Source: a virus. Taken from it: a DNA stretch of 64,000 nt. The DNA lies in IMG/VR virus record IMGVR_UViG_3300049844_000277, positions 36,520 to 100,519 of that record; one strand, given 5' to 3'. A program made the position numbers and the translations under genes. Shown piece by piece: positions 11,751 to 62,261 of the stretch (its first letter is position 1; each line of letters begins with the position of its first letter). The notes under the pieces were generated by a model. The model worked only from the letters and a program-made list of their open reading frames with translations. It had not been told where the DNA came from and did not search any database.

Positions 11751-12380
11751 TTAAGTACCGGCTCCACGGGAACCTCCTTCACAGAACATCATTCGCCGTA
11801 GGTCATCAGCATGCTGCTGGTCAGTAAGGACCATTTGCTCCAGCATGACCTTAAGCGACAAATTATCTCCGGCCATGTCTGACAGATGTCGTAACTCTTC
11901 AATCAATTGCTTCTCAGTTTGTAGAAGAGTCATGAAAATCTGGTGGAGGTCACTCATGTTCGGGATGACACCTACCTTAGGAATAGGTTCTCCGCCTAAC
12001 GCCGTAATCTTCATTGCGAGATGGTAGGCGTCCATCCGCTCTTCTTTGATGTGCTCTTTAAAGTGGTCGTAGATAACATCTCTAAAGTGCGCACGAATAC
12101 GATCGCCATAATTCATATACATGAAGATGATGGTATATTTGTAGCGCAGCAACTTATTACACTGAGCCACTACCTTATCCTGGGCAACCGCGAAGAATCC
12201 TTCCTCGGCCGATACAGCAAGAGGATGAGCACCAGCAGATGCTGTGGCAAGCGGAGGCATGGCGAACATCTCCTCCGTGTGCGGGGATGACTCCATTGTG
12301 TCCGCCATTGGACTGCTAGGAACTGGAAGACTCGAGCCACTCTCAGCCATGGAAGTACCCACTTTGTAGCGCTGCGTCAT
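11751..12380 (-). CDS. Hypothetical helical protein (209 aa) immediately after the rpoB-rpoC fusion; weak ferritin-like E/H spacing
   Basis: Start ATG overlaps the fusion-gene stop (ATGA). Paired E...H residues (KEHIKEERMDAYH, EQMVLTDQQH), but no clean ExxH pairs. Confidence 0.35.
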   Translation of the reverse strand: MTQRYKVGTSMAESGSSLPVPSSPMADTMESSPHTEEMFAMPPLATASAGAHPLAVSAEEGFFAVAQDKVVAQCNKLLRYKYTIIFMYMNYGDRIRAHFRDVIYDHFKEHIKEERMDAYHLAMKITALGGEPIPKVGVIPNMSDLHQIFMTLLQTEKQLIEELRHLSDMAGDNLSLKVMLEQMVLTDQQHADDLRRMMFCEGGSRGAGT

Positions 12381-25300: not shown

Positions 25301-25374
25301 TCATGTGCAGGGTTTGGGTGTGAAGCCGCCCGGTCAAAAACGGACATTGTATCAGTGTTAGGAAGGTCAGCCAT
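22363..25374 (-). CDS. Putative portal / head-tail connector-like protein containing an intein (1003 aa precursor, about 576 aa spliced)
   Basis: Extein has the Q-rich C-terminal tail typical of portals (QQVQLQAQ...QQAKAQMAQQNQPV), and the gene sits first in the structural operon. N-extein has a CPSC...HCLHC zinc ribbon. The portal assignment is tentative. Confidence 0.45.
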   Translation of the reverse strand: MADLPNTDTMSVFDRAASHPNPAHDFLTGFVPRKLKDLFKWCEYLMYNSAHVYAALRKFGELVVTDLEYGTSNEALRRNYRRLFEKTLKIKSALLMASLDKHIYGNHFTSIYKPFVRSLKCPSCQQLVAIQHTDYKFELKSLAFTYHCLHCKRDVRGTVVDRKILAASRVHIIRWDPKLMDIDYNPITGQSVYYYNIPQDVKDQVKSGSKHLINSMPMEFLENIRDNKTFRFEKDALFHIKVPSPSGIDQQWGFPPLASTIKLFLYTMTLRKANECVSLDTLIETSTGLVPADDVRVGDLVRTHLGRWRPVEQKWYRDAKDDEIGCRITLSGLRHLSGVFSPHHPILTLRRTSDARRSDTKDKQTSSEILQNPHLYEEVMCPAEQFEKGDYILYPRTIPSEPQQVDVAKYTGFANTENYVYSAMSLPSAQAFEAESAGEHVKGVPGKIARRKLKEGSVPKRLPATRPMTEDFAYILGHYVGNGSCNQRTVMIAMGSKTEEPLREAIRREFGLECGGYNQRGNCSMVTLCDVIVKALIKGMVPGTARVKRVPSEVFHAPDSVKLAFLKGLWEADGHTREGQDTLATSSAGLAYDVYRMLLHVGCIATIREHITPIHALADGRVITPNGPSYHVRVSGASQERLYALWNWEDAEEITIGKSGFFWKDYFAARVSVVEESEEEQYIDFKIAEDSTFCIAGGATKNSIALEHVVPMRILHPAQNGQQDFTQMISLARWQDEMKQNIRRWRRDPLHIMMAPVALGVSNLGGDGRAMLTLGELQEAEKSIMAALGIPQEFLYGGLTKAGMEATLRLIQNQTQGHADDMNDLLQWYSDQMSRYLGWEKIEAKLTPLKMVDDTESKQLLLSMATGQAGPSYVSMTTILERLDIDLDAEREKRLQETLDEARHNQRVQNELRKLQNNLSQQVQLQAQGTPGLNYDQQAVIAQADQIVQQLMGLDVGSRRSQLDSLSKEDAVMHAVVIQRLEDLQNQQGQQAKAQMAQQNQPV
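23269..24549 (-). mobile_element. Intein (427 aa, LAGLIDADG type) in portal-like protein
   Basis: Starts CVSLDTLIETSTG (classic block A). Motifs ILGHYVGNGS and FLKGLWEADGHT. Ends YIDFKIAEDSTFCIAGGATKN followed by Ser. Boundaries verified on the DNA. Confidence 0.75.
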
Positions 25375-30275: not shown

Positions 30276-31250
30276 ATGGCTGCCGCCGAAAAACCTGTAT
30301 TGCCTACGTGGACCAAACCGAACCTCGTGACTATTGAACCAACACCGAGGAACCCTCCGAAGCTCATTGAACTCGCGGTCAAGGATATCCTCACGAAAGC
30401 GGGAGACAATATCCGAACAGGAGAACTTCCCGATATTGAAGAGCTTGCCAAGAGTATCAAAGCCGAAGGATTGCTAGAACCAATCATCGTTACTGCCGCA
30501 GAGACGCCGGGAAAGTACTCGGTGATTGCAGGGCACCGCCGACTGACCGCCGTTCGAAGCTTGGGCGAAGAATCTGTCCCTGCGTTGGTAGTAGATGCGG
30601 ATAGCAATCGACGCATCAAGCTAGCGCTCATCGAAAACATCCAACGAAAGGACATGGCTCCGTTGGATAAAGCGAAGGCGTTCGCGAAGCTCATCAAAAA
30701 TACAGGGCTGGAGCAGCAGCAAGTGGCTCAGGCTATCGGAGTTGCCCCAGGATACGTCTCACAATATTTGACTCTCCTCGCGCTACCGGAATCAGCTATC
30801 TCTGCGCTTCGAGATGAAACGCTTTCATTCACACAAGCGCGAGTTCTTTGCCGACTACTTCCGCACATAAAAGAAATCGACGCCCTAGTACTCGAAGCCT
30901 CCAACCTTACCGCTGCCGCGATGGAGACAAAGGTTGCGCATATCCTTGGGACGCTCAAAGCATCGAAAGCTGAAGCTGAAGCTGAAGCCGATGCTGAAGA
31001 TGATAAGGTAAACCCTGAGGATGCGGACGGACGTCCGAAGAAGAAGAGAGTAGCTAAGACCGTGGTACCCGATAAAGCAGTCGAGTATTACGCCGAAGCG
31101 GACTTCCATCCGCTCAAGAAAGAAGACATTCGGGAACTGATGGTCAGCTACAAGCGAAAAGAAGTAAACGCTGAGAGCGAGAAAAAGAGAGAAGAGTATC
31201 GCCTGATTCTCAAGGGAATCACGTTAGCAGCGGATCTTCGTCTTAAGTGA
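30276..31250 (+). CDS. parB: ParB/Spo0J-like partition or nuclease-domain protein
   Basis: ParB-box IAGHRRLTAVRSLG; LIENIQRKDMAPLDKAKAF; HTH GLEQQQVAQAIGVAPGYVSQYLTLL. Confidence 0.8.
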   Translation: MAAAEKPVLPTWTKPNLVTIEPTPRNPPKLIELAVKDILTKAGDNIRTGELPDIEELAKSIKAEGLLEPIIVTAAETPGKYSVIAGHRRLTAVRSLGEESVPALVVDADSNRRIKLALIENIQRKDMAPLDKAKAFAKLIKNTGLEQQQVAQAIGVAPGYVSQYLTLLALPESAISALRDETLSFTQARVLCRLLPHIKEIDALVLEASNLTAAAMETKVAHILGTLKASKAEAEAEADAEDDKVNPEDADGRPKKKRVAKTVVPDKAVEYYAEADFHPLKKEDIRELMVSYKRKEVNAESEKKREEYRLILKGITLAADLRLK

Positions 31251-34143: not shown

Positions 34144-37100
34144 GTGCCCACAACCCGAGGAGCTCTCATGGAGAAGCCCGCAGAAATCTGCAGCGGATGT
34201 CCTCGAGAAATCGAGACAGAGACCCATCCCTACGGTTATGTTGAATCGTGGATTGATTCAAACGCCGAACTCATCATCATAGCGGAAGCTCCTGTCTGCG
34301 ATCGCCACGGTAACGTTCCTAGCTCTTTCGACGATGACAGCGGTAAAATCATTCGAACCGCCGTATCCGAGCTACGTAACTTACCTTCGCACAGTAAGCT
34401 AGCGGTCTCGTATACGTACGCAGTACTCTGTACAAGCAACCAGGGCGACAAAGACCCCGAAAAAGCCGTACTGCAACGGTGCCGTACGCTGCTCCAAGCT
34501 GACTTACGTCGCGCAAACAAGAACGCCGTCCTGCTGGTAATGGGTATGTCTGCCCTTCGCGCACTAGAAATAAAAGCCGCGAAGTTGAAGGACATGCAGG
34601 GGCGATTACTCCAAAAGCAGAAAATTGGAGAAGGTGATGACGCTCCGATATTCGATGTCGTCGTAACCGTCTCGACAAAACAGTTGTTCGCGATGCCGGG
34701 AATCTACACGACGTTCGTAGCGGACCTGCGACGAGCTGCGGACGCTGCGAGCGCAGGTGGATTAACACACGTTACCCCACTCGAAAAACTAACCGAAAAA
34801 TACGTAATCCCGAAAACAATCGAAGAAGTACGCCAAATCTGTCGCGAAATACTGAATTATCAAGAAGGTAAAGTATCTGCAGATAACTGGCCTATCTCTG
34901 TAGACACCGAGACAAACACCAAGTTTCCACACCGAGAAAACTTGAAAGTATTGGCGGTGTCCTTCGCATGGGCGGAGGGTAAAGCTACTGCAATTCCATT
35001 AGAGCACCCCACTACACCCTACGCGTACCAAGACGCGATACCGTACGTACGCGAAGTCTTAGCGAGCAAGAAGCCGAAGTTCCTTCATAATGCTAAGTTC
35101 GACCTTAAAGTCTTCATGAAAGCGGGCTGGCCGATTAACGGGTTCGCTTGGGATAGCATGCTAGGGGAACATGCTCTCGAAGAAGATAAAAAGGGACAGT
35201 ACGGATTAAAGCAGTTGACCCGTACTTTCTTCCCGGAATTCGCGACATACGCCGACTCTCTTCAAGAAATGCTCACGCACGAAGAGGGCGACTCGCAGCT
35301 CGACAACCTGAGGAAAGCGCCAAAAGCTTCAACTTCGAAAGATGGGGGATTTGAAAGTATCCCACTTCCCACGCTATTGCTTTATGCGGCAGTCGATGCA
35401 GATATGACACGGCGGCTAGTGTTACTGCAGGAAAAAAGAATTACCGACGAGCAGAACAGAGTAATCGTAGAAACGAATATAACGAAGAGAGAGCAGGCGC
35501 TGGCGATTTCGGCGAGGAAGAAAATACGGCTGAGAATTGCGCCGCTACATAGTGAGACGGAGATGTTGAAGAAGTACATGGTGCTCTACCCCGTCCCAGA
35601 ACTCTGTTCCGCTGATAAGCCGGTAAGACAACTAGTACTGAACAACGTATTCCCCGTTACCCCAGCTCTCGCGAGAATGGAGTTTAAGGGCATACGGATA
35701 GACAGACCGTACCTAACTACGTTGCGTGAAGCGTTGGGAAAAGTCGTCACAGAAACCGCTGCAGAGCTACAGGATATGGCGGGCAGAGAGATAACTCTCA
35801 ATAGTCCGGCAGAGATAGCTGAAATCCTGTTCAACAGCGGGTTTATACATCCAACAACTCACGCCCCCACGACTTATCCCCTCACAGGCATCGGTAAGAC
35901 AAAAACGGGACAGATACAAACCACCGAGAAAGTGATGCAGTACTTGGTGGCGAAGTATCAGTGCCCCTTTGCAGCTAAAAAACTAATCTACGCCAAGGCA
36001 TATAAAGCGAAAAATACGTTCTGTCAGAATGTGTGGGATCTCTCGGAGCTCGACGGGTATCTACACACGAACTACAACCAGCACGGCACAAATTCGGGTA
36101 GACTGTCCTGTGTCGCGGGAGAAACCGTACTAGATACTAATTACGGAAAAATCGAGATACAGAATCTCGATCTGGAGAAGATGCCGGGGATTACCATCCA
36201 GACCCACGAACTCCGCGAACAACCGATTCTACGTAAAATAGAAAAAGGCATTGAAGAAATGTTCGAGGTCGAACTCGAAGACGGGCGCACCATCACCGTG
36301 ACTAAAAAACATCGCTTCTTGACGCCGACGGGGTGGAAACGACTCGAGGAACTGTCAGAAAATGCCGAAATACTCTGCGCCGCCTCCGTGGGTAGTGGAC
36401 CAAATATGCGACTCGTTACAACCCGGATAAAAAGCATACGTCCCGTAGGTCCTAAGAAAGTCTGGGACCTCACAGTAGCGGTCGATCACTCTTACATCGC
36501 CCACGGATTTGTTAACAAAAATTCCAACGATGAAAACATGCAAAACATCCCCAAGAAATTGGCGGGTGTTAACATTAAGAAAGTGTTCCTCCCGGACGAT
36601 GATTCGTATGTCTTCGTCAACGCTGATGCGAAGGGTGCCGAAGTACGAATCCTAACCGCCTACTGCCGAGACCAAGCGCTCATACAATCGCTCAACGCGG
36701 GGCAGGACACGCATTGTTTCATCGCGTCCAAGATTGTTGAAATCGTACGTCAGAGTCCTGGTGCAACGGCGGTTCTCGGAAGCATGAATCTAAGCGATGA
36801 GTATCCTCTGACGTACGAAGACTTCGCGGCTAGAGACAAGCTAAAAGAAACCAATAGTAAGTACGGGGCGATGCTCGACAAATTCAGAACCGCTGTCAAA
36901 CGCGTAGTGTTCGGTATTCTGTACGGCGCCGGTCCTCAGAAAATTGCGGAAACTATTGGTATCAGTCTAGAGCAAGCACAACAGCTCATTCACACTCTGT
37001 TCGCTTTGTTTCCGTCCATCAAGACGTACATGGCGCAGACAAAGTGGGAACTACAACAATTTAATTTAGTCGAAACGTTCTTCGGTAGACGCCGTAGATT

Positions 37101-37527
37101 TAGTGTATCGGGAGCGCCGAAGTATCAAATAGGGAGAGCTGAACGTCAGACAGTTAATTTTAAAATCCAAAGCACAAGCTCTGATATCGTAATGGGACGA
37201 TTACTAGCAATCGAAGAACCTCTCAAAGATTTGGGAGGTAGACTTCTATTGACAGTGCACGACAGCCTTGGGTTTCAAATCAAGAAAAAATATATCCGAC
37301 AGCTACCTGATTTCATTTATACGTATTTGGAGAAGGGTGCAGCAGACGCCCATCCATGGCTCCCAGTCGCATTTAAATGGGACTACGAAGTTGGGTCATC
37401 ATACGGCGAACTCAAATCACTGGAATCCTACCTTGCCAACACGAAAATAGAGGAATACTCGAACGATGCCTACGTCGCCGAGGCTTTCACAGAAGAAGAC
37501 GCAAGAACCTCCCTCTCCGAACCCTGA
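34144..37527 (+). CDS. polA: Family A DNA polymerase (Pol I-like) with N-terminal UDG-like domain and 3'-5' exonuclease domain, carrying a mini-intein
   Basis: UDG family-4-like ELIIIAEAPVCDRHG...FDDDSGKIIRTAV. Exo I SVDTETNT; Exo II FLHNAKFDLKVF; Exo III LLLYAAVDAD. Motif A NADAKGAEVRIL; motif B KRVVFGILYGAG; motif C LTVHDSLGF. GRLS/SNDENMQNIP split by the intein. Confidence 0.9.
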   Translation: MPTTRGALMEKPAEICSGCPREIETETHPYGYVESWIDSNAELIIIAEAPVCDRHGNVPSSFDDDSGKIIRTAVSELRNLPSHSKLAVSYTYAVLCTSNQGDKDPEKAVLQRCRTLLQADLRRANKNAVLLVMGMSALRALEIKAAKLKDMQGRLLQKQKIGEGDDAPIFDVVVTVSTKQLFAMPGIYTTFVADLRRAADAASAGGLTHVTPLEKLTEKYVIPKTIEEVRQICREILNYQEGKVSADNWPISVDTETNTKFPHRENLKVLAVSFAWAEGKATAIPLEHPTTPYAYQDAIPYVREVLASKKPKFLHNAKFDLKVFMKAGWPINGFAWDSMLGEHALEEDKKGQYGLKQLTRTFFPEFATYADSLQEMLTHEEGDSQLDNLRKAPKASTSKDGGFESIPLPTLLLYAAVDADMTRRLVLLQEKRITDEQNRVIVETNITKREQALAISARKKIRLRIAPLHSETEMLKKYMVLYPVPELCSADKPVRQLVLNNVFPVTPALARMEFKGIRIDRPYLTTLREALGKVVTETAAELQDMAGREITLNSPAEIAEILFNSGFIHPTTHAPTTYPLTGIGKTKTGQIQTTEKVMQYLVAKYQCPFAAKKLIYAKAYKAKNTFCQNVWDLSELDGYLHTNYNQHGTNSGRLSCVAGETVLDTNYGKIEIQNLDLEKMPGITIQTHELREQPILRKIEKGIEEMFEVELEDGRTITVTKKHRFLTPTGWKRLEELSENAEILCAASVGSGPNMRLVTTRIKSIRPVGPKKVWDLTVAVDHSYIAHGFVNKNSNDENMQNIPKKLAGVNIKKVFLPDDDSYVFVNADAKGAEVRILTAYCRDQALIQSLNAGQDTHCFIASKIVEIVRQSPGATAVLGSMNLSDEYPLTYEDFAARDKLKETNSKYGAMLDKFRTAVKRVVFGILYGAGPQKIAETIGISLEQAQQLIHTLFALFPSIKTYMAQTKWELQQFNLVETFFGRRRRFSVSGAPKYQIGRAERQTVNFKIQSTSSDIVMGRLLAIEEPLKDLGGRLLLTVHDSLGFQIKKKYIRQLPDFIYTYLEKGAADAHPWLPVAFKWDYEVGSSYGELKSLESYLANTKIEEYSNDAYVAEAFTEEDARTSLSEP
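36109..36522 (+). mobile_element. Mini-intein (138 aa, no endonuclease domain) in the PolA GRLSS-NPNLQNIP motif
   Basis: CVAGETVLDTNYGKIEI...KKVWDLTVAVDHSYIAHGFVNKN followed by Ser. Excision restores TNSGRLS-SNDENMQNIP, matching the family-A consensus. Boundaries verified on the DNA. Confidence 0.8.
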
Positions 37528-38793: not shown

Positions 38794-40398
38794 TTACGCG
38801 TAGAATTTCAGGTCATTAGACACAAGCTTATGTGCAAACCATCCGAACAGTTGTGCATGAAGACAATCGTCAGGTAATTGGGGACTGTGTCGCCAAACCT
38901 TTTTACCTGACGACGTAACTTCTTCATAGACGTTCAGAATATCTTTAATCGCTTCACGTGATTCTTCTCGTGGCGGATATACAACCGAACCCCGCTTCAG
39001 AAACATGAGATAGTTATCAATCATCGTCGTGCGGTCAGCGAGATACCTGTCCAAGCCATTGTGCTTTATCGGCTGACCTAACGCTCCGTACTGCATCATG
39101 TGCACGCGGTGAGCGCCTAGACGGTCTCGTAGCGTCGCATTAGGTAGTGCGCCTTCGCCAGCGTCACCGATGACCATCGCAACAGCGTAATGCTGGCAAA
39201 TCGCAGCGATATTCTCGACATCTGCGACGGCGTTGCTTCCTGGGTAAATTCGGAAGTAGAGCGTACGTAACTTCTGTGTTGCGGGATGAAAGCCCCACAC
39301 CCATAGGACCGTACGGCTAACGCCCGTCGTTCCGCCGCCCGACCAATCAACGCCGGCAACAGTAATCGAACAGCCTTCCAAATTTTTACCTGGCGTAGGG
39401 GATATCTGGGGGCCTGTGCACAGTGCTTCGAGCTCCTCCAGTGAAATAAGTCTACGACCTACGGCATCTGATACACCCAAGACCTCATTGCGGAACTTAG
39501 CCGCGGAAAACATGTCATGGTCACGGAGGATATCATCCCAACGCGCCTGAGCGTCCTCGACTGCACTCGGCTTTTCGGGCGTATTTTTTACACACGACGG
39601 GATGTTCAGCGGCATAATCAATTGAGAAATGTGAAAGCCTTTAATGGAGTGTTTTCCAGTACCCTTGTCGGCAATACGCATATCGATCCACTGCCCTGCG
39701 CGGGGATTTAAAACCTTCCCACAATTAAGACAAATGGGGCCGTGTTTACCGAGAGACTTCTCACTAATAACGAAGTTGTATTTACTACACCCCTCGCACT
39801 TCATCACCCATTCGCTCTGAGAAGACTGATCCCACAAAAATTGAATGGAGTTCTCCATAGTTTTCGGAGTTCCGGCGTAAGTTTCGAACCGGTACGCGGA
39901 ATTCTTCATACACGCCAAAATTACGGGAATGACACTGTCGTATAATACGTCCTGTACTTCGTCAAACAAACAACGGTCAGCGGAAAAACCACGCGCACGA
40001 TCCGCGTCATCGGTCGCGTACGTGAACCCGTTCTCTGACCCGTTCGTATACGACCGATGTAATACGCGATCCGCGTGATCTGGAGATAAGAAGTATTTCT
40101 TAATCAACGGCGAATACGACAATGTTTTACCAACACGCGTGTTAGAGAACAAGAGAGTTTGCTCGCGTGAAGGACTGGAATAGTAACTCTTGAAAAATGG
40201 GCGAGAAACAGATTCAGATATAATAAAGTTAGCCAGAGATGTGCTTTTACTGACCTGACGCGCAGTCATCAGAAGCGTCGATTTATAACCTCCGTCATAT
40301 ATCGATTTGAAAAATGGATAGTCTGTAAGACTAAAGGGAGCGCCGTCTAGCCATAATAGACGCTCAGCCACTTCCGAAAGACGTTTACTTCCAATCAC
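38794..40398 (-). CDS. terL: Terminase large subunit (ATPase plus RNaseH-like nuclease) with zinc-ribbon insert
   Basis: Walker A LLMTARQVSKST; Walker B CLFDEVQDV; YAGTPK coupling motif; CEGCSKYNF...CLNCGK ribbon; nuclease-domain GVDWSGGG...MVIGDAGEG. Confidence 0.85.
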   Translation of the reverse strand: MIGSKRLSEVAERLLWLDGAPFSLTDYPFFKSIYDGGYKSTLLMTARQVSKSTSLANFIISESVSRPFFKSYYSSPSREQTLLFSNTRVGKTLSYSPLIKKYFLSPDHADRVLHRSYTNGSENGFTYATDDADRARGFSADRCLFDEVQDVLYDSVIPVILACMKNSAYRFETYAGTPKTMENSIQFLWDQSSQSEWVMKCEGCSKYNFVISEKSLGKHGPICLNCGKVLNPRAGQWIDMRIADKGTGKHSIKGFHISQLIMPLNIPSCVKNTPEKPSAVEDAQARWDDILRDHDMFSAAKFRNEVLGVSDAVGRRLISLEELEALCTGPQISPTPGKNLEGCSITVAGVDWSGGGTTGVSRTVLWVWGFHPATQKLRTLYFRIYPGSNAVADVENIAAICQHYAVAMVIGDAGEGALPNATLRDRLGAHRVHMMQYGALGQPIKHNGLDRYLADRTTMIDNYLMFLKRGSVVYPPREESREAIKDILNVYEEVTSSGKKVWRHSPQLPDDCLHAQLFGWFAHKLVSNDLKFYA

Positions 40399-46728: not shown

Positions 46729-47331
46729 ATGGACCTCTACTGTCTTCGTGTTCGTAGGAACATCGCTGGACGTAAATTTCCCTTCGATAGAGTGTATCTC
46801 GCGAAATACGGGGATCACGTTATATTCAAAAGATTATTCAGGTATGCCTTCATCCTTCCCGTTGAAGGCGTACTAAAGGAAACGCTGTACTGTCTCCCCA
46901 TTGAAGACAGCATGACGCACGCATTCGACAGAGTAGAAACGCCTGAGAAAATTCCAGATGTAGAGTGGAAGACGCTCATCGACTCGACGGACTGGGTACT
47001 CGCGGTACCGATTCTATCGAAGTACGTGACCGCTAACATGCCGAGATATATTATTGCCAAGTCCACGGTGCCCCGAAGAGACAAGAAAAACTCTAACGCG
47101 TGCGCAAACCCGTTTCCAAACATGACGTACTTGCAGACACCCGAGCAAAACATTCGGCCAATATGTGTCGCATGTCCGAACTTTATCCAGCATCAGAACG
47201 GTCACTGCGAACTTGGAGATAAGCTCTGCTACGACTCTCTTTCCCTGGGAATCCGAAATCACTTTGAAGAAGGCATGATGGTTCCTCCTGCCCCGGAAAA
47301 AGAACAAGTGACTGAGGAGGGGAACGACTAA
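46729..47331 (+). CDS. Cys-rich hypothetical protein (about 200 aa), first gene of the RT operon
   Basis: ATG at 46729 after the terminator (the track ORF begins earlier, at 46630, inside the CT tract). CVACPNF...HCELGDKLC. Stop overlaps the RT start (TAATG). Confidence 0.5.
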   Translation: MDLYCLRVRRNIAGRKFPFDRVYLAKYGDHVIFKRLFRYAFILPVEGVLKETLYCLPIEDSMTHAFDRVETPEKIPDVEWKTLIDSTDWVLAVPILSKYVTANMPRYIIAKSTVPRRDKKNSNACANPFPNMTYLQTPEQNIRPICVACPNFIQHQNGHCELGDKLCYDSLSLGIRNHFEEGMMVPPAPEKEQVTEEGND

Positions 47332-48467
47332 TGCCTGTCTACAAACAAAATTTCCTTGAGCGAATTGAAGTACGCGAGCCACTCATCAAAGGCGTACCCC
47401 TTATCGTCGATGACTGGAGTCTGGCATTCCAGCTAGGTTTTACGGGTAAGACCGCGTGGTACATCATCCATGAACGCGCCAGTATGTACCGGGAGTTCAT
47501 GCTGAAAAAGAAGTCTGGGGGTCTCCGTAGAACGTTTGATCCAACTAACCTCCTGCGCATTTTCCAGAAACAACTACGCGCACGCATTCTGTTCCCGCTC
47601 GTATCTCGCCTAGGTCCGCACGTAGCCGCGTATCAGGTCGGTAAGAGCACGCTTGATGCGGCAAACTGGCACCTGCGCGAGTGTAAAATCTGCGACGACA
47701 CGACCCGTCCCGGCACGAGTCCTGTGAAACATGAGTGTCCTCGACGGGGTGTGAAGTTCAAAATGGATTTGAAGGATTTCTTTCTATCGACTCGTCGGTC
47801 CTGGATACGACAGTATTTCCACGAAGTCGTCGGATACAATCACTACGTCTCGTCGATTCTGGGGCACCTACTGACGACGAGTTATAAAGATGAGCGGAGA
47901 AAAGACAGGAACGGCGTTCCGCCAGGCGCATTAACAGCTGGCGATATTTGTAATCTCATCTGTGATTGGAAGATAGATCAACCGCTTATGGCGGCACTAC
48001 CCACAGGCTGGAAGTACACACGGTACGCCGATGACTTGTATTTCTCGTACGACGCACCCCTTCCATCAAAAGAAGTAAACAAGATAATCCGACTAGCCTC
48101 GGACACCATCACCGGCTCCGGTTACCGGGTAAATTGGAAAAAGCTCCAAGTGCAACACTGGAGCCGGCCCCAGCGAGTACTAGGTATCAATATCAACAGA
48201 AAACTAAACATCCCTGCGACTGAGTACCGTCGAATGCACATGATTCTGTATAAAGCAAAGAAGCATGGATTCCAGGCGCAACTTACGTGGGCAAAGAAAG
48301 CCGATGTTCCGGAACTTCACGCCTGGATAACCGGCAAACTGAATTACTACGCGCGATTCGCACCAGATAAAACCAATAAACTACAACGGCTTTATCAAGA
48401 AGCGAAGGACGCGAATCCAAGCGAAGAGGCCGCGGTGTTCAACTTTGGAACCGGTGCAAACCCATGA
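47331..48467 (+). CDS. Reverse transcriptase (RT domain motifs 1-7 plus thumb GxxNYY), 378 aa, no endonuclease or maturase extension
   Basis: Motif 1 KKKSGGLRRTFDP; motif 2 AAYQVGKSTLDAA; motif A KFKMDLKDFFLS; motif B' GVPPGALTAGDICNLICDW; motif C TRYADDLYFS; motif 6 YRVNWKK; motif 7 RVLGININ; thumb WITGKLNYYARF. Insert CKICDD...HEC between motifs 2 and A. Confidence 0.8.
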   Translation: MPVYKQNFLERIEVREPLIKGVPLIVDDWSLAFQLGFTGKTAWYIIHERASMYREFMLKKKSGGLRRTFDPTNLLRIFQKQLRARILFPLVSRLGPHVAAYQVGKSTLDAANWHLRECKICDDTTRPGTSPVKHECPRRGVKFKMDLKDFFLSTRRSWIRQYFHEVVGYNHYVSSILGHLLTTSYKDERRKDRNGVPPGALTAGDICNLICDWKIDQPLMAALPTGWKYTRYADDLYFSYDAPLPSKEVNKIIRLASDTITGSGYRVNWKKLQVQHWSRPQRVLGININRKLNIPATEYRRMHMILYKAKKHGFQAQLTWAKKADVPELHAWITGKLNYYARFAPDKTNKLQRLYQEAKDANPSEEAAVFNFGTGANP

Positions 48468-51427: not shown

Positions 51428-51937
51428 TTGATGACGACAAACTCAGATTATTGGCTGAGATGGGCAAGCGCCCAAGGAGCTACGATGCCGGCACACTCCC
51501 GAGGTCAAAGTCAAAGTCAAATCCAAAACCCAAATCTGGACGTGTTTCTAGAAGGTGACGTATATACGACGAATTGTCGATGCTCTGATTGTGGGAACAA
51601 TCACAGGAAAACAGAAAGAAAAGAATATTACTGGGCCACGGTCTCGAACTGCCACCGTGAATTAGCTCGAGCAGCAGAGGTTTACACGGCGGTCTGGGAG
51701 CCGAACACGGCGGGGTCTACCGTCGCAAAGCAGCTCATCGTTCCGCTGACCATCGGCCTCGCGGAGCTTGAAGTTCATCCTGAAAAATTTGAGAGCATCG
51801 CTCGTCGAAGCGTGTGTGCTCCGTACGGGGGATATCAATCCTTCGTGCATTTCATCCAAGGCTATCTGCAAGCGTGCATCGAGTACCCTGACGCCACCGT
51901 GCGGGTATCTACGCATAATTGGGGGCTACGTGATTGA
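51428..51937 (+). CDS. Hypothetical protein (169 aa) with CRCSDCGNNH motif
   Basis: Intact ORF; its stop overlaps a GTG that probably starts the next gene. Confidence 0.4.
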   Translation: MMTTNSDYWLRWASAQGATMPAHSRGQSQSQIQNPNLDVFLEGDVYTTNCRCSDCGNNHRKTERKEYYWATVSNCHRELARAAEVYTAVWEPNTAGSTVAKQLIVPLTIGLAELEVHPEKFESIARRSVCAPYGGYQSFVHFIQGYLQACIEYPDATVRVSTHNWGLRD

Positions 51938-52250
51938 TCTAATCGAGCAGCTAACTCGGCAGAAGGAGTTCTCTCTTAGGACCTTTGGGCCCGGCGATTC
52001 ACGCGAGAGATTCGCTGGATTGCGGGAGCATATTGAGAAGGAACTGAGAGAGCTGGAGTCCGCCCCGTACGACTTGGAAGAGTGGATAGACATCATCTTG
52101 TTGGCGCTGGACGGCGCATGGAGGACCGGCGCAAGTCCAGCAGAGATAATCGCAATGCTCCAATACAAGCAACGAAAGAACGAAGAAAGAAAGTGGCCCC
52201 GCTGGCAAGACGTTTCGTTTGAGCGAGCGATGGAACACATCAAGGACTAA
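51929..52250 (+). CDS. MazG-like all-alpha NTP pyrophosphohydrolase (probable GTG start; track ORF 51768..52250)
   Basis: RERFAGLREHIEKELRELESA...YDLEEWIDIILLALDGAWRTGASPAEI resembles the MazG/HisE EExxE...EExxD helical motif pair. GTG at 51929 overlaps the upstream stop (GTGATTGA). Confidence 0.35.
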
Positions 52251-52499: not shown

Positions 52500-53651
52500 T
52501 TGGGAGTTTACGCCGGAGATCGCCAATATGGCGGCGCGGTATGCTTCTTATGTGCAGGGTCGGTACCTCCGATATCTCCGCGTCCGTCTTCCCCCACGAC
52601 ATCGGGAGTCATAGTCACAATGGAACGTGCGTACGGCGTAGCAATTGCCTCCATCTATTTGGAGAAGCTGAAGTATCACGTCTTTCCTATTCGGCAGATA
52701 CTCGGAATAACGACTGGAGAACCCCGCTGTGACTGTACGGATGAAACGTGTCCGAACGTCGGAAAACATCCGCGAGTAGCGTGGTCTAAGAATACTGCGA
52801 CCGCGTCTGCTTGGGAACGTTGGCCAAATGACGGCTTTGGAATCGCAACAGGTGCGCGTTCGGGTATTTGGGTCTTGGATGTCGACCCGAAGAATAACGG
52901 TCCGGAGACACTACGGGTGCTCGAGCAGGCTCCAGGGCACGCTCCATTACCCAGGACAATAACCGTAAAGACGGGCTCGGGAGGGGAACATTACTACTTC
53001 CGATATCCTGGTCCGAATTACCGTAACACCGCCGGTGCGCTCGGGTTGGGACTAGACACGCGTGGTGACGGTGGATTCGTCGTTGGGCCTGGGTCACTGC
53101 ACAAGAGCGGGCGACGGTACACGTGGAAGCATGGGCCCGCCGATGCGCCGCTCGCCGATCCGCCTGAGTGGTTGCTCAAGTTGGTGAAGCAAACAGCCAA
53201 ATACCGGCGAGACGTGAACGTTGAAAAACAAGGGCTGCACACAGCACCTGTCCCACGCGCAGAGGCGGAATATCTTCTCGAAATAATGTTGGACCCGGAC
53301 TGCAGGCTAACGCAGTGGATGCGCACGTCTCCCGACGACGTCAGCCGAGAAACGTGGCGAGGATTTGCGACAAACCTCGCTTGCGCTGTAGTCGATCATC
53401 CTGAGTTGATCGAAAAAGCCTGCGAAGCGTTCCACGAAATCTCGTCCGGATATTCGCGCTATAAGGTTTCTGAAACGGAGCGAGTATTTAGAGATTCCGT
53501 AACAGTTGCACGGGTTTACGGCCCAATGTCGTTCGAGCACATGGTGAGGTCAGGAATGCCCTCAGAGCACGCTATTCCTCCCCACGCAAAAAACTTGTTG
53601 CACTCCGCGCAGTTGGAGATGCGGAGAAAAAGGCCTCGCAAGTCGGATTGA
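52500..53651 (+). CDS. Archaeo-eukaryotic-type primase (Prim-Pol N-terminal domain) protein; true start possibly the Met at about 52620
   Basis: AEP motif I GIWVLDVDPKN; motif II TGSGGEHYYFRYPG; motif III GLDTRGDGGFVVGPGSLH. The N-terminal 40 codons of the track ORF lie in a CT-rich tract. Confidence 0.7.
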   Translation: MGVYAGDRQYGGAVCFLCAGSVPPISPRPSSPTTSGVIVTMERAYGVAIASIYLEKLKYHVFPIRQILGITTGEPRCDCTDETCPNVGKHPRVAWSKNTATASAWERWPNDGFGIATGARSGIWVLDVDPKNNGPETLRVLEQAPGHAPLPRTITVKTGSGGEHYYFRYPGPNYRNTAGALGLGLDTRGDGGFVVGPGSLHKSGRRYTWKHGPADAPLADPPEWLLKLVKQTAKYRRDVNVEKQGLHTAPVPRAEAEYLLEIMLDPDCRLTQWMRTSPDDVSRETWRGFATNLACAVVDHPELIEKACEAFHEISSGYSRYKVSETERVFRDSVTVARVYGPMSFEHMVRSGMPSEHAIPPHAKNLLHSAQLEMRRKRPRKSD

Positions 53652-53826: not shown

Positions 53827-55728
53827 ATGCTGCTGCCTAGTCCTGCTGAGGTCAAAGAACTAATCGTCTCTGCAGCCTTTCAAAGCGATGCGTTCATCGT
53901 GGCAAAAGGCGAAAAGACGCAAACAATGAAGGATATAGAAGCTGAAAAAGCGGCCCACGCAATGGCGGCCCGTCAGTCTAGTGGTCTACCACAAAGTACA
54001 AACGCACTTCAAACTTCGCCAAACCCGGACCCTGCGCCACCTCCCGTAGTGGAGAAGTTGGCCGGGGTTCTTAAGTTCCTAATCCAGAATGACCCCGTAC
54101 TGCTAGCAAAAACGAAGATTGAATTCAAAAAGCATTTCACAGGAGTCCTGACAAAGGGAAAGCTCATCTTAGAGCCTCTTTGTGACTCCCTCTTCGATTC
54201 AGCATCGGCCGAAGACATCACCTACAAAGAATTACGTAAGTTGGGAATGCATCGGGGCGGGCAGATACCCGGCGTGGAGACGTTGGGCCGGTGGATTCGA
54301 AGTGAAGCGTATAGCCAGTGCGTACCCAACGGACCACTGACCGATGACTACGTCTCCTTAATAGTCTTACTCACGCTCGACCCTGAGCTTCTAAAGGGCA
54401 AGCTGGAGTGGGACGATATGAACAAGGCTATTACGATTAACAGAGAACCTATTGATTTAGCAAAGACAGTAAGTCGAATCCGTACGCAGATAGGGGATAC
54501 TTACTCTCAGGAAGTCGGACGCTTACGTAAAATGCGTCGAATCGTCCCCTCACATCAATCTGTAGAGCAAGCCCTGGAAGCCCTGGCGAAGGAAAATCCG
54601 TTCCACGCAACGAAAGAATGGATGGACGCGCTCCCTGCGTGGGACGGCGTCGACCGCATGCTTCCGCTCCTAAAGGCTATCAGAGGCTGGGTGGATACGT
54701 CTGCCATTGACATGCCGCAACATATAAAAGAAGAGCACGAAAGGATAAACAACCTAGCGCTGAAACAGCTAACCAAAACACTCATCGGCACGGTAGCTAG
54801 AACATACGAGCCCGGGTGTCAGATGGACACGATGTTAGTGTTAAAATCCAAGCAGGGGACCAAGAAATCCACATTATTCCGCGTACTGGCACCAGCAGGT
54901 AGGTTCTCGGCATCGCACGGTGAATTCGGGACTAAAGACTCCCGAATGGTATACACGAAGAATACCTGGGTAGAGATTGCGGAACTGAGTGGGATGCAAC
55001 GCAAAGAAATACAAACAATCAAAGCTGAAATCAGTGACCGCAGTGATGACTTCCGACCACCGTACGCTAAAGCTATCATCAATAACCCTAGGTGGTGCGT
55101 GCTCGTAGGGTCTACGAACGACGATAAGTTCCTGAAAGACCAGTCGGGGTCGCGTCGATTCTGGATTATCGTCATAGGAGACGACACGAAGGCGGATATG
55201 GTCTTCGTGGAGAACAATAAGCCACAGCTATGGGCACAGGCGGTGGCTCTCTATAAGGCTGCCCCTATGTGCCAGGACTGCCTCGCGCGGGCCGATGGGG
55301 AGACCCGCTGCCCGACGCACCGCTGGTGGCTTACCGACGAGGAGGACAGCTTCAGAGAGAAGTACAACGAGAACTTCACGGAAGTGGAACCCTACGTAGA
55401 GGCGCTCAGGGACTGGATGAGCAGCGCAATCTCGGACCGTCGTTCGTCGAAACAGGGGCTACACACGGCGGTAAAAAATACCGACCACATGACGGTCGCG
55501 CAATTTCTTCAGGAGGTCATTATGCTACCGCCAGAGAAGGTTTTTGATCGAATCCAGCAGGATAGAATGGCCCGAGCACTCAAAATTTGCGGATACACTA
55601 AAAAACACACAGAACACGGAAATATTTGGATAAGTCCAGGAATGCGCAATAGACCAGATTTGAAATTAGTCGCTAAAGAAAAAACAGAGGCGGTATCGGA
55701 GAATTTGACAAAAACGTCGGAACAATGA
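53827..55728 (+). CDS. Primase-associated SF3 helicase (P4/D5/VirE-like P-loop NTPase)
   Basis: Walker A VLKSKQGTKKST; Walker B region WCVLVGSTND; signature GSRRFWIIVIG as in P4-alpha/VirE proteins. Confidence 0.7.
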   Translation: MLLPSPAEVKELIVSAAFQSDAFIVAKGEKTQTMKDIEAEKAAHAMAARQSSGLPQSTNALQTSPNPDPAPPPVVEKLAGVLKFLIQNDPVLLAKTKIEFKKHFTGVLTKGKLILEPLCDSLFDSASAEDITYKELRKLGMHRGGQIPGVETLGRWIRSEAYSQCVPNGPLTDDYVSLIVLLTLDPELLKGKLEWDDMNKAITINREPIDLAKTVSRIRTQIGDTYSQEVGRLRKMRRIVPSHQSVEQALEALAKENPFHATKEWMDALPAWDGVDRMLPLLKAIRGWVDTSAIDMPQHIKEEHERINNLALKQLTKTLIGTVARTYEPGCQMDTMLVLKSKQGTKKSTLFRVLAPAGRFSASHGEFGTKDSRMVYTKNTWVEIAELSGMQRKEIQTIKAEISDRSDDFRPPYAKAIINNPRWCVLVGSTNDDKFLKDQSGSRRFWIIVIGDDTKADMVFVENNKPQLWAQAVALYKAAPMCQDCLARADGETRCPTHRWWLTDEEDSFREKYNENFTEVEPYVEALRDWMSSAISDRRSSKQGLHTAVKNTDHMTVAQFLQEVIMLPPEKVFDRIQQDRMARALKICGYTKKHTEHGNIWISPGMRNRPDLKLVAKEKTEAVSENLTKTSEQ

Positions 55729-56436
55729 ACTTATTAAAAAACAATAGGTGTAAGCAAGTTTCGGGCCAACAAACTTTTTCAAAAATTCCTGAAAGGGGCG
55801 TTCAGCCGCAAATGTCCGTAATTACTAAAACTCGAAGAAAAACCTGAACAGGCTGAATGCCCTGACATGGTGCTTCTTATATAAGCATGGAGTAACAGGG
55901 GTATTACTGACCCACCCTGGGTCATTTTTGACGGACACTGGGTATAAAGTTCAGAAACATATTCAGGGTATTCAGGTATTCAGTTATCCAATAAAATCAA
56001 GTACTTAGAACGAAAAATGGCTGAATACCCCCTGAATATCCCCCCCTATGGCACCAGAATTGCTTGTGCGGTCAAAATCGAACTTTCTGGGCTATTTTCT
56101 GGGCTATTATTTTGTTCAGTATTCCTTTTAACCAAATGCCCGAACTGGCGAACATTGATCACGTGCCATCCCGCGCGCCCAACATTGATCCCGTGCTGTC
56201 CGAGCCGACCCTCAGCGGGGTCAAGCTCCCGTGCTGTCCGCGCCAGCCTCCGGCCGGCCCCGCTTCCGCAAGGGAAACCTTCCCGACGTCCCGACGAAGA
56301 CTATACCCTAGCCTAGCCTTATCCTCCACCCCCGTCCCCACTCTCGCTGTAGCCGTAGATTTCCTGGCAAGTCTCGCCAAAGGCCTCCAGCGGGCCGTAG
56401 GACCGACGAACCGGCGTAACCCGGTCCGACCCCTTG

Positions 56437-56482
56437 CCCGACCCCCGAACGTCGCTCCTGCGCCCGCCTAGGCCCCTTCCCG
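56437..56482. repeat. Direct repeat copy 1 (46 bp, GC-rich)
   Basis: cccgacccccgaacgtcgctcctgcgcccgcctaggccccttcccg. Confidence 0.8.
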
Positions 56483-56562
56483 CCGGTCCGCCGAATCCGC
56501 CTCAAACCGCCCTGAGTGGCCTCCAGGCGCTCAAACGCCCCAGACCCGACCCAAGACCCTAC

Positions 56563-56608
56563 CCGACCCCCGAACGTCGCTCCTGCGCCCGCCTAGGCCC
56601 CTTCCCGG
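56563..56608. repeat. Direct repeat copy 2 (46 bp, identical)
   Basis: The same 46-mer, 126 bp downstream of copy 1. Confidence 0.8.
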
Positions 56609-56888
56609 CCTAGACTCGAGGGGAACTCTCGCCGGGAGAAGACCCTTGAAGCCCCTACCCGCCCTGACGCTTCGCGACGTCCTCAAGAACGAAATTGAAA
56701 ACGATCGACGGAACGTCGAACAGATTTCCGTCTCTCGCCAGGATTCAGTTAACCGTTCAATCGCCATATGTGCGCGCCGGTACATCGAAGCGCTGGACTT
56801 TGGCGATGAAACGTTGTTGTTTGATGCCGAAGATAATTTGCGGCTTGCGCTTGATAACGTTCGTTCTTGATTATTCGCTTACTTCAAA

Positions 56889-57446
56889 ATGTTATTTCTC
56901 GGAGTCGATCAATCACTACGCAGCTCCGGAGTGGCTGTCATTTCCGAGGAACAAGAATCTGTCTATCTTGGGCGTATAGCCCCTGCTAAGCTTTCAGATG
57001 CACCAAGGTTGGCTGCAATAAGAGACGCATTACAGACACTCATTACTACAACACCAGACATCCGCTTTGCCGCGCTAGAAGGGTACGCGTATGACGTTGG
57101 CGCTGGTAGAGTGTTTGAGCTGGGTGAAGTTGGCGCTGTTGTTAAGTTGGCGCTTTATGACGCTAAAATCCCGTTTATCGTCGTTCCGCCGGCCTCTCTA
57201 AAGCAATTCGTAGCTGACCACGGCAACGCCAATAAGACGCAAATGCGGATATCTGTATTACGTCGTTGGGGTTATGACATTACCCAGGACGACGAATGTG
57301 ATGCCTTTGGTTTGGCGCAAGTCGCTAGAGCTGTACACCTTAACAAGGGCACGACTCGCTCCGAACTCGAAGTACTGAAGAAGCTACGTACAACAGACAA
57401 GAAGGTTTCTTTAGTCAGCTTCAAGACCCGATTCCCTTCCATCTAA
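56889..57446 (+). CDS. RuvC-like Holliday junction resolvase
   Basis: N-terminal LFLGVDQSLRSSGVAVI (RuvC motif I hhGIDPG..tGhAV-like); catalytic-acid region ...ALEGYAY; C-terminal DDECDAFGLAQVA (RuvC DAADAL-like). Confidence 0.65.
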   Translation: MLFLGVDQSLRSSGVAVISEEQESVYLGRIAPAKLSDAPRLAAIRDALQTLITTTPDIRFAALEGYAYDVGAGRVFELGEVGAVVKLALYDAKIPFIVVPPASLKQFVADHGNANKTQMRISVLRRWGYDITQDDECDAFGLAQVARAVHLNKGTTRSELEVLKKLRTTDKKVSLVSFKTRFPSI

Positions 57447-57458
57447 GAGAATAAGAAT

Positions 57459-57659
57459 ATGCGTTGCTCCAACTGCGAATCCCCGATGAAGGATGTCGAC
57501 GGTATGACTGTTCGGCTTAATAAGGACAATACAGCCCTCACGCATCTCTGCGGTGAGTGTATCTCAGGAGTTTTGACGCTTAAGATTGTCTTGTCCCGTC
57601 AGCGGGCGCAGGATTCGTTTACGTTTTCTGGTTATTTGCCGGTAGCGTCGGAGAGGTGA
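57459..57659 (+). CDS. Small zinc-ribbon protein (66 aa)
   Basis: CSNC...CGEC pairs. Confidence 0.35.
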   Translation: MRCSNCESPMKDVDGMTVRLNKDNTALTHLCGECISGVLTLKIVLSRQRAQDSFTFSGYLPVASER

Positions 57660-57886
57660 GTGAGAGTGAGGAGCTTATGAGCAAGAGACGTTGCATCGAG
57701 TGCGAAGAAATAATTCCACCGGATTCTCTTTTTTACCGAGTGACTCGCCCAGGAGACCAAGCCATTGAGAGCTGCTGTGCGCGATGTGTTCCGAGCTTAC
57801 GGGCTCGCGTGAAGGCCGCCAATGCTTTGTACGTGGAATTCGGTCGCGCCGATGAGGTGGCTCCTTTACCGCAGCCGGTGAACTGA
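57656..57886 (+). CDS. Small Cys-rich protein (76 aa)
   Basis: CIECEE...CCARC; start overlaps the upstream stop. Confidence 0.35.
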   Translation: MSESEELMSKRRCIECEEIIPPDSLFYRVTRPGDQAIESCCARCVPSLRARVKAANALYVEFGRADEVAPLPQPVN

Positions 57887-58955: not shown

Positions 58956-59867
58956 ATGTCTGCTCAAATTGTTCCGTTTCAGTTCGAAGGCGAAGAAGAA
59001 GTTCGAGTCATCATGAAGAACGGAGAGCCGTGGTTCGTTGCTTCAGACCTGTGTCGGGTCCTGGACATCAAGGACGTCTCCGTCGCCGTACGTAACTTCC
59101 CGGAATCACTGATTGGTCGGTGTTTAACACCGACGAGCGCGGGGGAGCGAGAAGCCATTACCCTCAGCGAAGCCGGCATGTGGCGGCTGGTCATGCGCTC
59201 CGACAAGCCCAAGGCCCTCGAGCTCCAACAGTGGCTTTCGGAGCACGTACTTCCGAGTATTCGTAAGACCGGTGTGTACTTTGCCGGGATTTCTCCTGAA
59301 TCGCTGAAAAGCCAGCGCGTTCAGCACGCTATTCAGCTCGTACACCTCACTGCTGAATTCGAGTTAGCACAGGAGCAACTTAACGAACATACCCGGCAAC
59401 TGATTCGGCAGAATCAGGCTCTCAATAAGCATGAACAACAGTTGAAGACCCTCGAAGAGACAACGGCCATCATCGACGACTACGTCACCATTAAGGGAGC
59501 CGCAAAGAAGCTCGGGGTACGCATCGATTCAACTCTCGCTGGAATGATGGGTAAAGTCGCAGCGACCCGAACTAAGCAGCGGGGGTTACTCATTCGAGAT
59601 GTTGCTGATTTACAACACGGAACAGTGCACGCATATCCTCGAGAAATCGCGGAAGAGGCAGTGCTGTTTGTAACGGCGAATGAACCACAGCGGCTCATCG
59701 AAAAACAAGAAGCCGCAGCGAAGAGGGAAGCGAAGAAGCTTGAGCAGATGAAGGAGGAAGCTAGCGCAGTTCCTACTTCTAACGGAGCGTCGAAGCATAG
59801 GCTCCAATTTATCGATCTTCCGGATGACGCATTTTTGAAGGAAGATGATAAGTCGACCATACAATGA
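58956..59867 (+). CDS. Bro-N domain protein (phage antirepressor-like) with C-terminal coiled-coil region
   Basis: VPFQFEGEEEVRVIMKNGEPWFVASDLCRVLDI...ITLSEAGMWRLVMRSDKPKALELQQWLSEHVLPSIRKTGVY matches the Bro-N signature. Confidence 0.7.
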   Translation: MSAQIVPFQFEGEEEVRVIMKNGEPWFVASDLCRVLDIKDVSVAVRNFPESLIGRCLTPTSAGEREAITLSEAGMWRLVMRSDKPKALELQQWLSEHVLPSIRKTGVYFAGISPESLKSQRVQHAIQLVHLTAEFELAQEQLNEHTRQLIRQNQALNKHEQQLKTLEETTAIIDDYVTIKGAAKKLGVRIDSTLAGMMGKVAATRTKQRGLLIRDVADLQHGTVHAYPREIAEEAVLFVTANEPQRLIEKQEAAAKREAKKLEQMKEEASAVPTSNGASKHRLQFIDLPDDAFLKEDDKSTIQ

Positions 59868-62122: not shown

Positions 62123-62183
62123 TAGTCTCGACTTCACTAAACCGTCTGCTTCACCAGCGCGGTAGACCTTGGGGTTTAGTGAA

Positions 62184-62256
62184 CTCCCCGAGTAGGACTC
62201 GAACCTACGACCTAGCGATTAACAGTCGCTCGCTCCACCAGCTGAGCTATCGGGGA
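62184..62256 (-). tRNA. tRNA-Asn (anticodon GTT)
   Basis: Reverse complement folds as: acceptor TCCCCGA/TCGGGGA; D arm GCTC-AGCTGGTG-GAGC; anticodon stem AGCGA/TCGCT with loop CTGTTAA; variable loop AGGTC; T arm GTAGG-TTCGAGT-CCTAC; discriminator G. No encoded CCA. Confidence 0.85.
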
Positions 62257-62261
62257 AGATG

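Follow-up and report, generated by a model that had tools for sequence, protein, structure and literature searches.

What is the gene-free DNA that follows the primase and helicase genes of an uncultivated jumbo phage, and do its two very different parts belong together? The question concerns a 64,000-nucleotide stretch of IMG/VR record IMGVR_UViG_3300049844_000277 (the window; all coordinates refer to it unless a relative is named). Here the interval 55729-56888, bounded by a VapE-like helicase gene on the left and a RuvC gene on the right, contains an AT-rich part with short repeated units (iterons) followed by an island of C-rich DNA. An initial annotation considered the placement of this interval, right after the primase and superfamily 3 (SF3) helicase genes, to fit a replication origin. 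This is well supported for the iteron part, whose layout recurs in 16 relatives and whose neighbouring helicase is a homologue of Rep1, the initiator-helicase of a Staphylococcus aureus pathogenicity island (SaPI), but not for the last 243 nt, which consist of a conserved 74-aa gene and the short spacer before RuvC. Because 56646-56870 is a conserved gene, the non-coding feature ends at 56645 and comprises 55729-56645. Our preferred reading, to which we assign a probability of about two in three, is that its first part (55729-56140) is a predicted origin of the pri-rep-ori type described in SaPIs and other phage-inducible chromosomal islands (PICIs), carried here by a jumbo phage of ~190 kb, and that the C-rich island is an enlarged and duplicated form of a GC-rich tail found in the relatives.

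The Reps of SaPIs are self-loading initiator-helicases with a primase gene upstream and the ori immediately 3’ of rep; this ori has an AT-rich centre with two or more iterons on each side, pointing in opposite directions, in a total of 6-12 penta- or hexanucleotide units, and Rep reads these units with a winged-helix domain that forms part of its C-terminal domain (PMC9371898). The same pri-rep-ori organisation occurs in the PICIs of Gram-negative bacteria (PMC6092414). We read 55729-56140 as an origin because the adjacent helicase is homologous to Rep1, whose ori has the same position and layout, and at the level of sequence every part of such an ori appears to be present here:

52620-53651, plus strand: Prim-Pol primase gene (pri; PF09250, E = 3.8e-36), with its start taken from the public gene call on contig L007 (the longest open reading frame begins at 52500)
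53827-55728, plus strand: VapE-like SF3 helicase gene (rep; PF05272, E = 8e-55)
55789-55857: upstream TTCAG-core copies at 55789 (minus), 55801 (plus), 55844 (minus), and 55853 (minus), with an equivalent set in relatives
55908-55929, plus strand: terminator-like hairpin TGACCCA-CCC-TGGGTCA (55908-55924) followed by TTTTT
55950-55983, plus strand: left iteron set, AAGTTCAG and three direct copies of (G)TATTCAG at 55960, 55969, and 55977
55984-56020, no strand: 37-nt spacer, 73% AT, between the opposed iteron sets; candidate melting site
56021-56038, minus strand: right iteron set, two inverted copies, CTGAATACC and CTGAATATCC
56084-56107, plus strand: exact tandem repeat of TTTCTGGGCTAT (two copies), at the position held in relatives by a conserved 70-nt element

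The primase gene ends 176 nt before the helicase gene begins, and the first TTCAG core lies 61 nt beyond the helicase stop codon, with the core sets following at 222-310 nt. Eleven TTCAG cores occur in the 412 nt of the iteron part versus 1.13 expected. Five of these extend to TATTCAG, the three direct copies listed above and two inverted ones (56021 and 56032), all within 80 nt; with 13 occurrences of this 7-mer in the whole window, such a cluster has a Poisson probability of ~1e-9 after scanning, and the window contains no second one. The AT-rich centre, which includes AATCAAGTACTTAG, is thus flanked by three to four direct units on one side and two inverted units on the other. Three direct and two inverted copies had also been counted in the initial annotation, correctly for the 7-mer but not for the exact unit that it named, TATTCAGG, which occurs twice directly (55960 and 55969) and once inverted (56031-56038); the tandem TTTCTGGGCTAT was found as it had been described. 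The hairpin and T-run probably end the pri-rep transcript ahead of the core origin.

Homology of the helicase to Rep1 is apparent in both sequence and fold. A profile of 25 family members matched SaPI1 Rep1 (7PDS) in the PDB with E = 5e-38, and the best Foldseek match of an AlphaFold2 model of the helicase (predicted local distance difference test score, pLDDT, 78) was again 7PDS (E = 3e-15, template modelling score 0.59-0.64 on the target, ~490 aligned columns), in an alignment that covers about the whole Rep1 chain and places the protein among SF3 helicases homologous to the SaPI Reps. The next fold matches were the Prim-Pol-associated SF3 helicases of NrS-1, poxviruses (D5/E5), and African swine fever virus. 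Compared with SaPI Rep1, the phage helicase has an extra N-terminal region of ~180 residues, and the two share ~21% identity. Near its C-terminus the model has a helix at 557-563, a second helix at 575-587, and a beta hairpin at 591-602 (pLDDT 75-83), and residues ~555-605 are predicted to form a winged-helix-like C-terminal domain. At position 579 of the putative recognition helix, basic residues go with the iteron GGTTCAG in five of five genomes; a one-residue code at this position agreed with the 12 genomes compared first, but was rejected when L054 and L058 broke it for the other iteron types.

We compared the DNA that follows the helicase gene in 16 distinct loci (L011, L012, L014-L017, L019, L020, L049-L051, L053, L054, and L057-L059), whose helicases are 37-62% identical to that of the window. 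Homologues with 45-62% identity sit on environmental-metagenome contigs of 142-196 kb, and the source lineage is a family of uncultivated jumbo phages; the phage collection gave no DNA match to the region. A gene-free gap 3’ of the helicase gene was present in all 16 relatives, measuring 350-670 nt where the next gene is called, and the order Prim-Pol, helicase, gap is shared by all except L059. When the gaps are aligned they have a common layout: a first group of repeats, mostly inverted; a hairpin followed by conserved GGTCATTTT; about three direct copies with a period of 8-10 nt; an AT-rich spacer in which the AATCAAGTACTTAG of the window is kept by relatives as AATCAA.GGTTAG; and two inverted copies. 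The close relatives show this layout most clearly; L012 and the two most distant loci, L020 and L059, have it in less complete form. The hairpin ahead of GGTCATTTT in relatives is GTGTGGC-N6-GCCACAC, different from that of the window.

While the layout is conserved, the iteron itself is specific to lineages. There are six iteron types overall, and inside any one genome the direct and inverted copies agree (given as direct, then inverted):

Window and L054: GTATTCAG, CTGAATAC
L014 and L015: GTAGTCAG, CTGACTAC
L012 and L049: GT(A/G)TTCAC (GTGTTCAC), GGTGAACAC
L016, L017, L050, L051, and L057: GGTTCAG, CTGAACC
L019: CCTTCAC, GTGAAGG
L020: GGGGTAG, CTACCCC

A conserved layout combined with concerted turnover of the repeated unit points to a binding site that evolves together with its cognate protein. 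The locus L059, a 13.8-kb Logan contig from SRR13959604, encodes a 47%-identical helicase amid a helix-turn-helix regulator, DUF932, and peptidase C39 genes, with no Prim-Pol upstream; this helicase gene, too, is followed by GC-rich DNA and by iterons with a TTCA core, direct as GTCCTTCA and inverted as GTGAAGGA. Apparently rep and ori move together.

To the right of the inverted iterons, the relatives have two further components. The first is a near-invariant 70-nt element (...ACATGnTCC.AC...AAAACGGGCTGTTTCGCCTTCCGGC.ACATGGGT...), located for example at the following positions of the relatives' own contigs:

L012, 8208-8277
L051, 8224-8293
L049, 8177-8244

The element is present in a single copy per locus and is near-invariant even though the phages that carry it have helicases with no more than 55-75% identity; possible roles are those of a promoter or a priming site. 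The second component is a GC tail of 110-150 nt with 58-70% GC, mostly C-rich, which ends in a ribosome-binding site, often CGCCGGGAG. Profiles of the two components found exactly one copy per relative, left-out genomes included (tail profile on held-out L054, 1e-8, and L057, 5e-5), apart from L020 and L059, in which, as in the window, the profile of the 70-nt element had no match. A pattern search for this element in viral contigs returned nothing. In an RNAalifold analysis of the tract from 11 relatives (the window not being part of the alignment), no covariation was found and the only invariant hairpin had 3 bp. The lack of a conserved RNA structure suggests that the constraint is on the sequence itself, probably through a protein.

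In the window, the place of the GC tail is taken by a much longer stretch:

56141-56645, plus strand: C-rich GC island, non-coding, 505 nt, 68% GC, GC skew -0.29
56437-56482, plus strand: copy 1 of a perfect 46-nt repeat (extended 64-nt copy 56419-56482)
56562-56607, plus strand: copy 2 of the repeat (extended 64-nt copy 56544-56607)

The strikingly C-rich block of the initial annotation is real, and among all 505-nt windows none has a higher GC content (z = 4.9). The two 46-nt repeats are identical as it had stated, although their starts are 125 rather than 126 nt apart. No such repeat is expected by chance (0 expected), and this is the sole repeat of at least 40 nt in the window; a 64-nt extension of the two copies has 89% identity. 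Beyond the 46-nt core the left flanks are marginally alike (56% identity, z = 1.9, with GGCCTCCAG in common) and the right flanks show no relationship. Shorter degenerate repeats occur in the left part of the island, at 56151/56181 and 56189/56227; in agreement with the same annotation, AACATTGATCNCGTGC is duplicated at 56151 and 56181 and CCGTGCTGTCCG at 56191 and 56229. An independent Joint Genome Institute (JGI) contig (L010) matches 56234-57784, a span that takes in both copies of the 46-mer, with 100% identity, and Logan contigs of SRR35532809 break where a k-mer assembly would be expected to break at a true repeat (L007 ends at 56466 and L008 starts at 56578, each 30 nt into a copy). The repeat is therefore real and not an assembly artefact.

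The best matches of the tail profile in the window, both strands included, are the two 46-mers (E = 0.019 and 0.21), and a second tail model gives them E = 0.11 and 0.16. Copy 2 is separated by 26 nt from the ribosome-binding site of the first gene downstream, and this is where relatives have the tail motif. We take the island to be a lineage-specific enlargement of the C-rich GC tail present in all close relatives, in which the conserved tail motif CCGAACGTCGyyCC...GCGCCCGCC...GGCCCC would have been duplicated as the perfect 46-mer. What the island does is the weakest part of this account. Most likely it provides the downstream operon, made up of the 74-aa gene and RuvC, with a promoter or leader; perhaps it is a GC barrier that limits melting, and a direct role in replication is conceivable, as is its being a part of the origin proper.

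Of the four canonical G-quadruplex motifs that the window has, three lie in the island, all on the minus strand (56420-56446, 56545-56571, and 56643-56664), and two of these three directly adjoin the 46-mers. We rejected the G-quadruplex as a conserved feature; the equivalent region of the relatives has none, and the motifs of the island may therefore be a mere by-product of its C-richness.

If the iteron part is an origin of this type, the VapE-like helicase would recognise the TTCAG-core iterons through its C-terminal winged-helix domain and would assemble on the three direct (55960-55983) and two inverted (56021-56038) copies in opposite orientations. It would then melt the AT-rich spacer and load itself, and the Prim-Pol would prime. 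The hairpin and T-run would insulate the origin from pri-rep transcription. A bolder version of this proposal, which we regard as speculative and rather improbable, is that the self-loading Rep with its iterons is the genome origin of the whole family of ~190 kb jumbo phages, although this type of origin has been described as exclusive to phage satellites, and that the 70-nt element and C-rich tail form a second, previously undescribed component beside the melting site, serving as a Prim-Pol start, R-loop, or G-quadruplex priming site, which was remodelled here into the 505-nt island with its duplicated 46-nt core and three minus-strand G-quadruplex motifs.

Several observations weigh against the origin reading as we have framed it. 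No simple rule was found that links the residue at position 579 of the helicase to the iteron type, so that we infer binding of the iterons by the helicase from homology and adjacency only. Cumulative GC skew is uninformative in the window, with a broad minimum at 49-57 kb that is confounded by gene orientation and by the island. The 70-nt element is undetectable here, which makes the origin atypical on its right side, and the homology of the 46-mers to the tail of the relatives comes with weak E-values and a high composition bias.

Two other explanations concern the iterons. They could be a transcriptional operator or promoter at an operon boundary, bound by a phage regulator that controls the downstream operon, and the setting has much that would suit this: a terminator-like hairpin upstream, a ribosome-binding site and a gene downstream, a position between two co-directional gene blocks, and no simple code between helicase residues and iterons. 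However, position and layout are exactly those of a defined SaPI/PICI ori with a Rep1 homologue as neighbour, the cluster still accompanies the helicase gene in L059, where the remaining genes are different, and up to 11 copies over ~350 nt, in both orientations and around an AT-rich centre, would make an atypical operator. We consider this explanation unlikely. Still harder to credit is a partition (centromere-like) or packaging site. Such sites are also built of repeats and the phage encodes a ParB-like protein and a terminase, but the genes for both are 15-25 kb away, and in all relatives the site goes with the helicase gene. ParB-like nuclease-domain proteins that have no function in partition are common in phages.

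The island, for its part, had been suggested to be foreign DNA or a structured RNA, and a conserved protein encoded by it had been named as evidence that would overturn the origin. Foreign DNA, either a small mobile element or an insertion acquired from a high-GC host, with the 46-nt repeats representing its termini or a duplication that it caused, would account for a composition far from that of the rest of the window, for the island standing in place of two genes of the syntenic loci L016 and L017, and for the missing 70-nt element. This is nevertheless improbable, and more so than the operator: DNA searches with the region or the 46-mer gave no match in the phage, plasmid, and viral-contig collections or in 185,579 species genomes; there are no inverted terminal repeats and no transposase; and the relatives have their GC- and C-rich tail at the same place, with the 46-mers as top matches of its profile. 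A coding function, for example a proline-rich protein, or a structured non-coding RNA is very unlikely. Open frames of 59-135 aa exist on both strands, but none spans the island, the 46-mer copies would be read in different frames because they are 125 nt apart, and the 135-aa frame begins in sequence that aligns to non-coding DNA of the relatives. Pfam and PHROGs gave no match for any of the six open reading frames of the island, and when the island was compared in six frames with the relatives collected up to then, tblastn recovered only the separate 74-aa gene, which lies 3’ of it; the island is thus not a recognisable pseudogene of the two L016/L017 genes. RNA folding of the island was equal to that of shuffled sequences on both strands (z = 0.0 and 0.1), the best Rfam matches for the window and two relatives were far below the gathering score (E = 0.6-10), and the tract of the relatives lacks covarying pairs.

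Among known replicons, the SaPI/PICI module is the closest. Its Rep is a hexameric SF3-type helicase, its primase gene can also be fused to rep, and each element has iterons of its own that match its Rep. The likeness includes the order of primase, initiator-helicase, and origin directly 3’, the opposed iterons with a core of 5-7 nt around an AT-rich centre, the element-specific iteron sequence, and a VapE-like SF3 helicase with the Rep1 fold and a predicted C-terminal winged-helix-like domain. In contrast to a satellite of 10-15 kb, the carrier here is a ~190 kb, apparently autonomous phage with DNA polymerase A and multisubunit RNA-polymerase-like genes. The contig sizes of relatives (187-196 kb), together with DNA polymerase A, the terminase, and the RNA-polymerase-like proteins, indicates that the module is PICI-like while the element is not a PICI. 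The phage origin also differs in having an upstream iteron set and a hairpin, and in what follows it: the 70-nt element and GC tail in relatives, and the 505-nt island with its 46-nt repeats here. We know of no counterpart of the 70-nt element, the GC tail, or the island in descriptions of the SaPI ori. What is new in the present case is a SaPI/PICI-type module in jumbo phages rather than satellites, with extra conserved flanking elements.

More remote parallels can be drawn with other systems. The alpha protein of P4 is a primase-helicase with a C-terminal DNA-binding domain that recognises short octamer iterons; the type I iterons of P4 are TGTTCACC, and its crr consists of directly repeated blocks. 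Several of the relatives use GTGTTCAC/GGTGAACAC, which resembles P4. Unlike here, primase and helicase are fused in P4 and ori and crr lie kilobases apart, whereas the window has no second TATTCAG cluster and no other repeat of at least 40 nt. PICI Pri-Rep and P4 alpha have only distant homology (PMC6092414). In the Sulfolobus plasmid pRN1, whose ORF904 combines a Prim-Pol with an SF3 helicase, an essential cis element lies just 3’ of the replication gene, near a putative terminator (PMC4234260). This element is a 100-nt stem-loop and not a set of iterons, and no comparable conserved stem-loop was found here. Origins of iteron plasmids, for example RK2 oriV, likewise unite iterons with AT-rich DNA that melts and a GC-rich block next to it, but plasmid Rep initiators of this kind have another fold and recruit the host DnaB, not being helicases themselves.

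The genes around the putative origin and elsewhere in the window include those for DNA polymerase A with an intein, the terminase large subunit, an SNF2 helicase, a ParB-like protein, a reverse transcriptase, and RNA-polymerase-like proteins:

9086-10885, minus strand: RNA polymerase Rpb1 domain 5 protein
12377-20887, minus strand: 2836-aa open reading frame with RNA polymerase beta-like pieces and many unrelated PHROG matches
22363-25374, minus strand: 1003-aa open reading frame with LAGLIDADG and Hint domains
30276-31250: ParB-like protein gene
34144-37527, plus strand: DNA polymerase A with an intein splicing domain
38794-40398: terminase gene
56634-56638, plus strand: GGGAG ribosome-binding site, 7 nt before a TTG start, in the context CGCCGGGAG common to relatives
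56646-56870, plus strand: conserved 74-aa gene, the first after the origin; the same gene is called on JGI contigs
56889-57446, plus strand: RuvC-like Holliday junction resolvase gene (PF02075, E = 2.3e-8)

The mixed matches of the 2836-aa frame suggest inteins or fusions. Apparently the phage has genes for a multisubunit RNA polymerase of its own, and host-type promoter scans are therefore of little use; a sigma-70 promoter scan found none, which says little because of these RNA-polymerase-like genes. Elsewhere in the window the motif CCGAACGTCG shows no enrichment, and it is therefore not a recurring promoter.

By tblastn, the 74-aa gene matches L016 8042-8257 and L017 3714-3956 with 49-52% identity, and each of these homologues is the immediate upstream neighbour of RuvC; in these two syntenic loci the two small genes at the position of the island precede the 74-aa gene and RuvC. 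Gene content to the right of the origin is highly variable. The first gene after it is a 74-75-aa DUF4031 gene starting with MRYFSD in several relatives (L012 8377-8601, L049 8354-8581, and L051 8399-8623), and in others a gene for a small CxxC zinc-finger protein.

Some further genes were noted in the window. Just upstream of the Prim-Pol gene is a dATP/dGTP pyrophosphohydrolase-family gene (51930-52250, plus strand; assigned to PF04447 in the public gene call), and Bro-N domain genes are found downstream of RuvC at 58956-59867 (plus strand). The reverse transcriptase gene (47331-48467, plus strand; RVT_1, E = 2.4e-14) stands between unannotated genes. No template/variable repeat pair of at least 40 nt was found for it in the window, so it does not look like part of a diversity-generating retroelement with both repeats nearby. 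A tRNA-Asn (GTT) gene is located at 62183-62257 on the minus strand.

For those who work with these genomes, the 46-mer repeat fragments k-mer-based assemblies of this phage, and the island, in itself a local curiosity, should not be annotated as a gene. The iteron part would give a family of uncultivated jumbo phages a testable origin, with a candidate initiator, candidate binding sites, and a candidate melting site. The combination of lineage-specific iterons with a conserved helicase scaffold offers a natural data set for the evolution of initiator specificity. If the prediction is right, origins of the SaPI/PICI type also occur in large, apparently autonomous phages, which would bear on the question of where the satellites acquired their replication modules.

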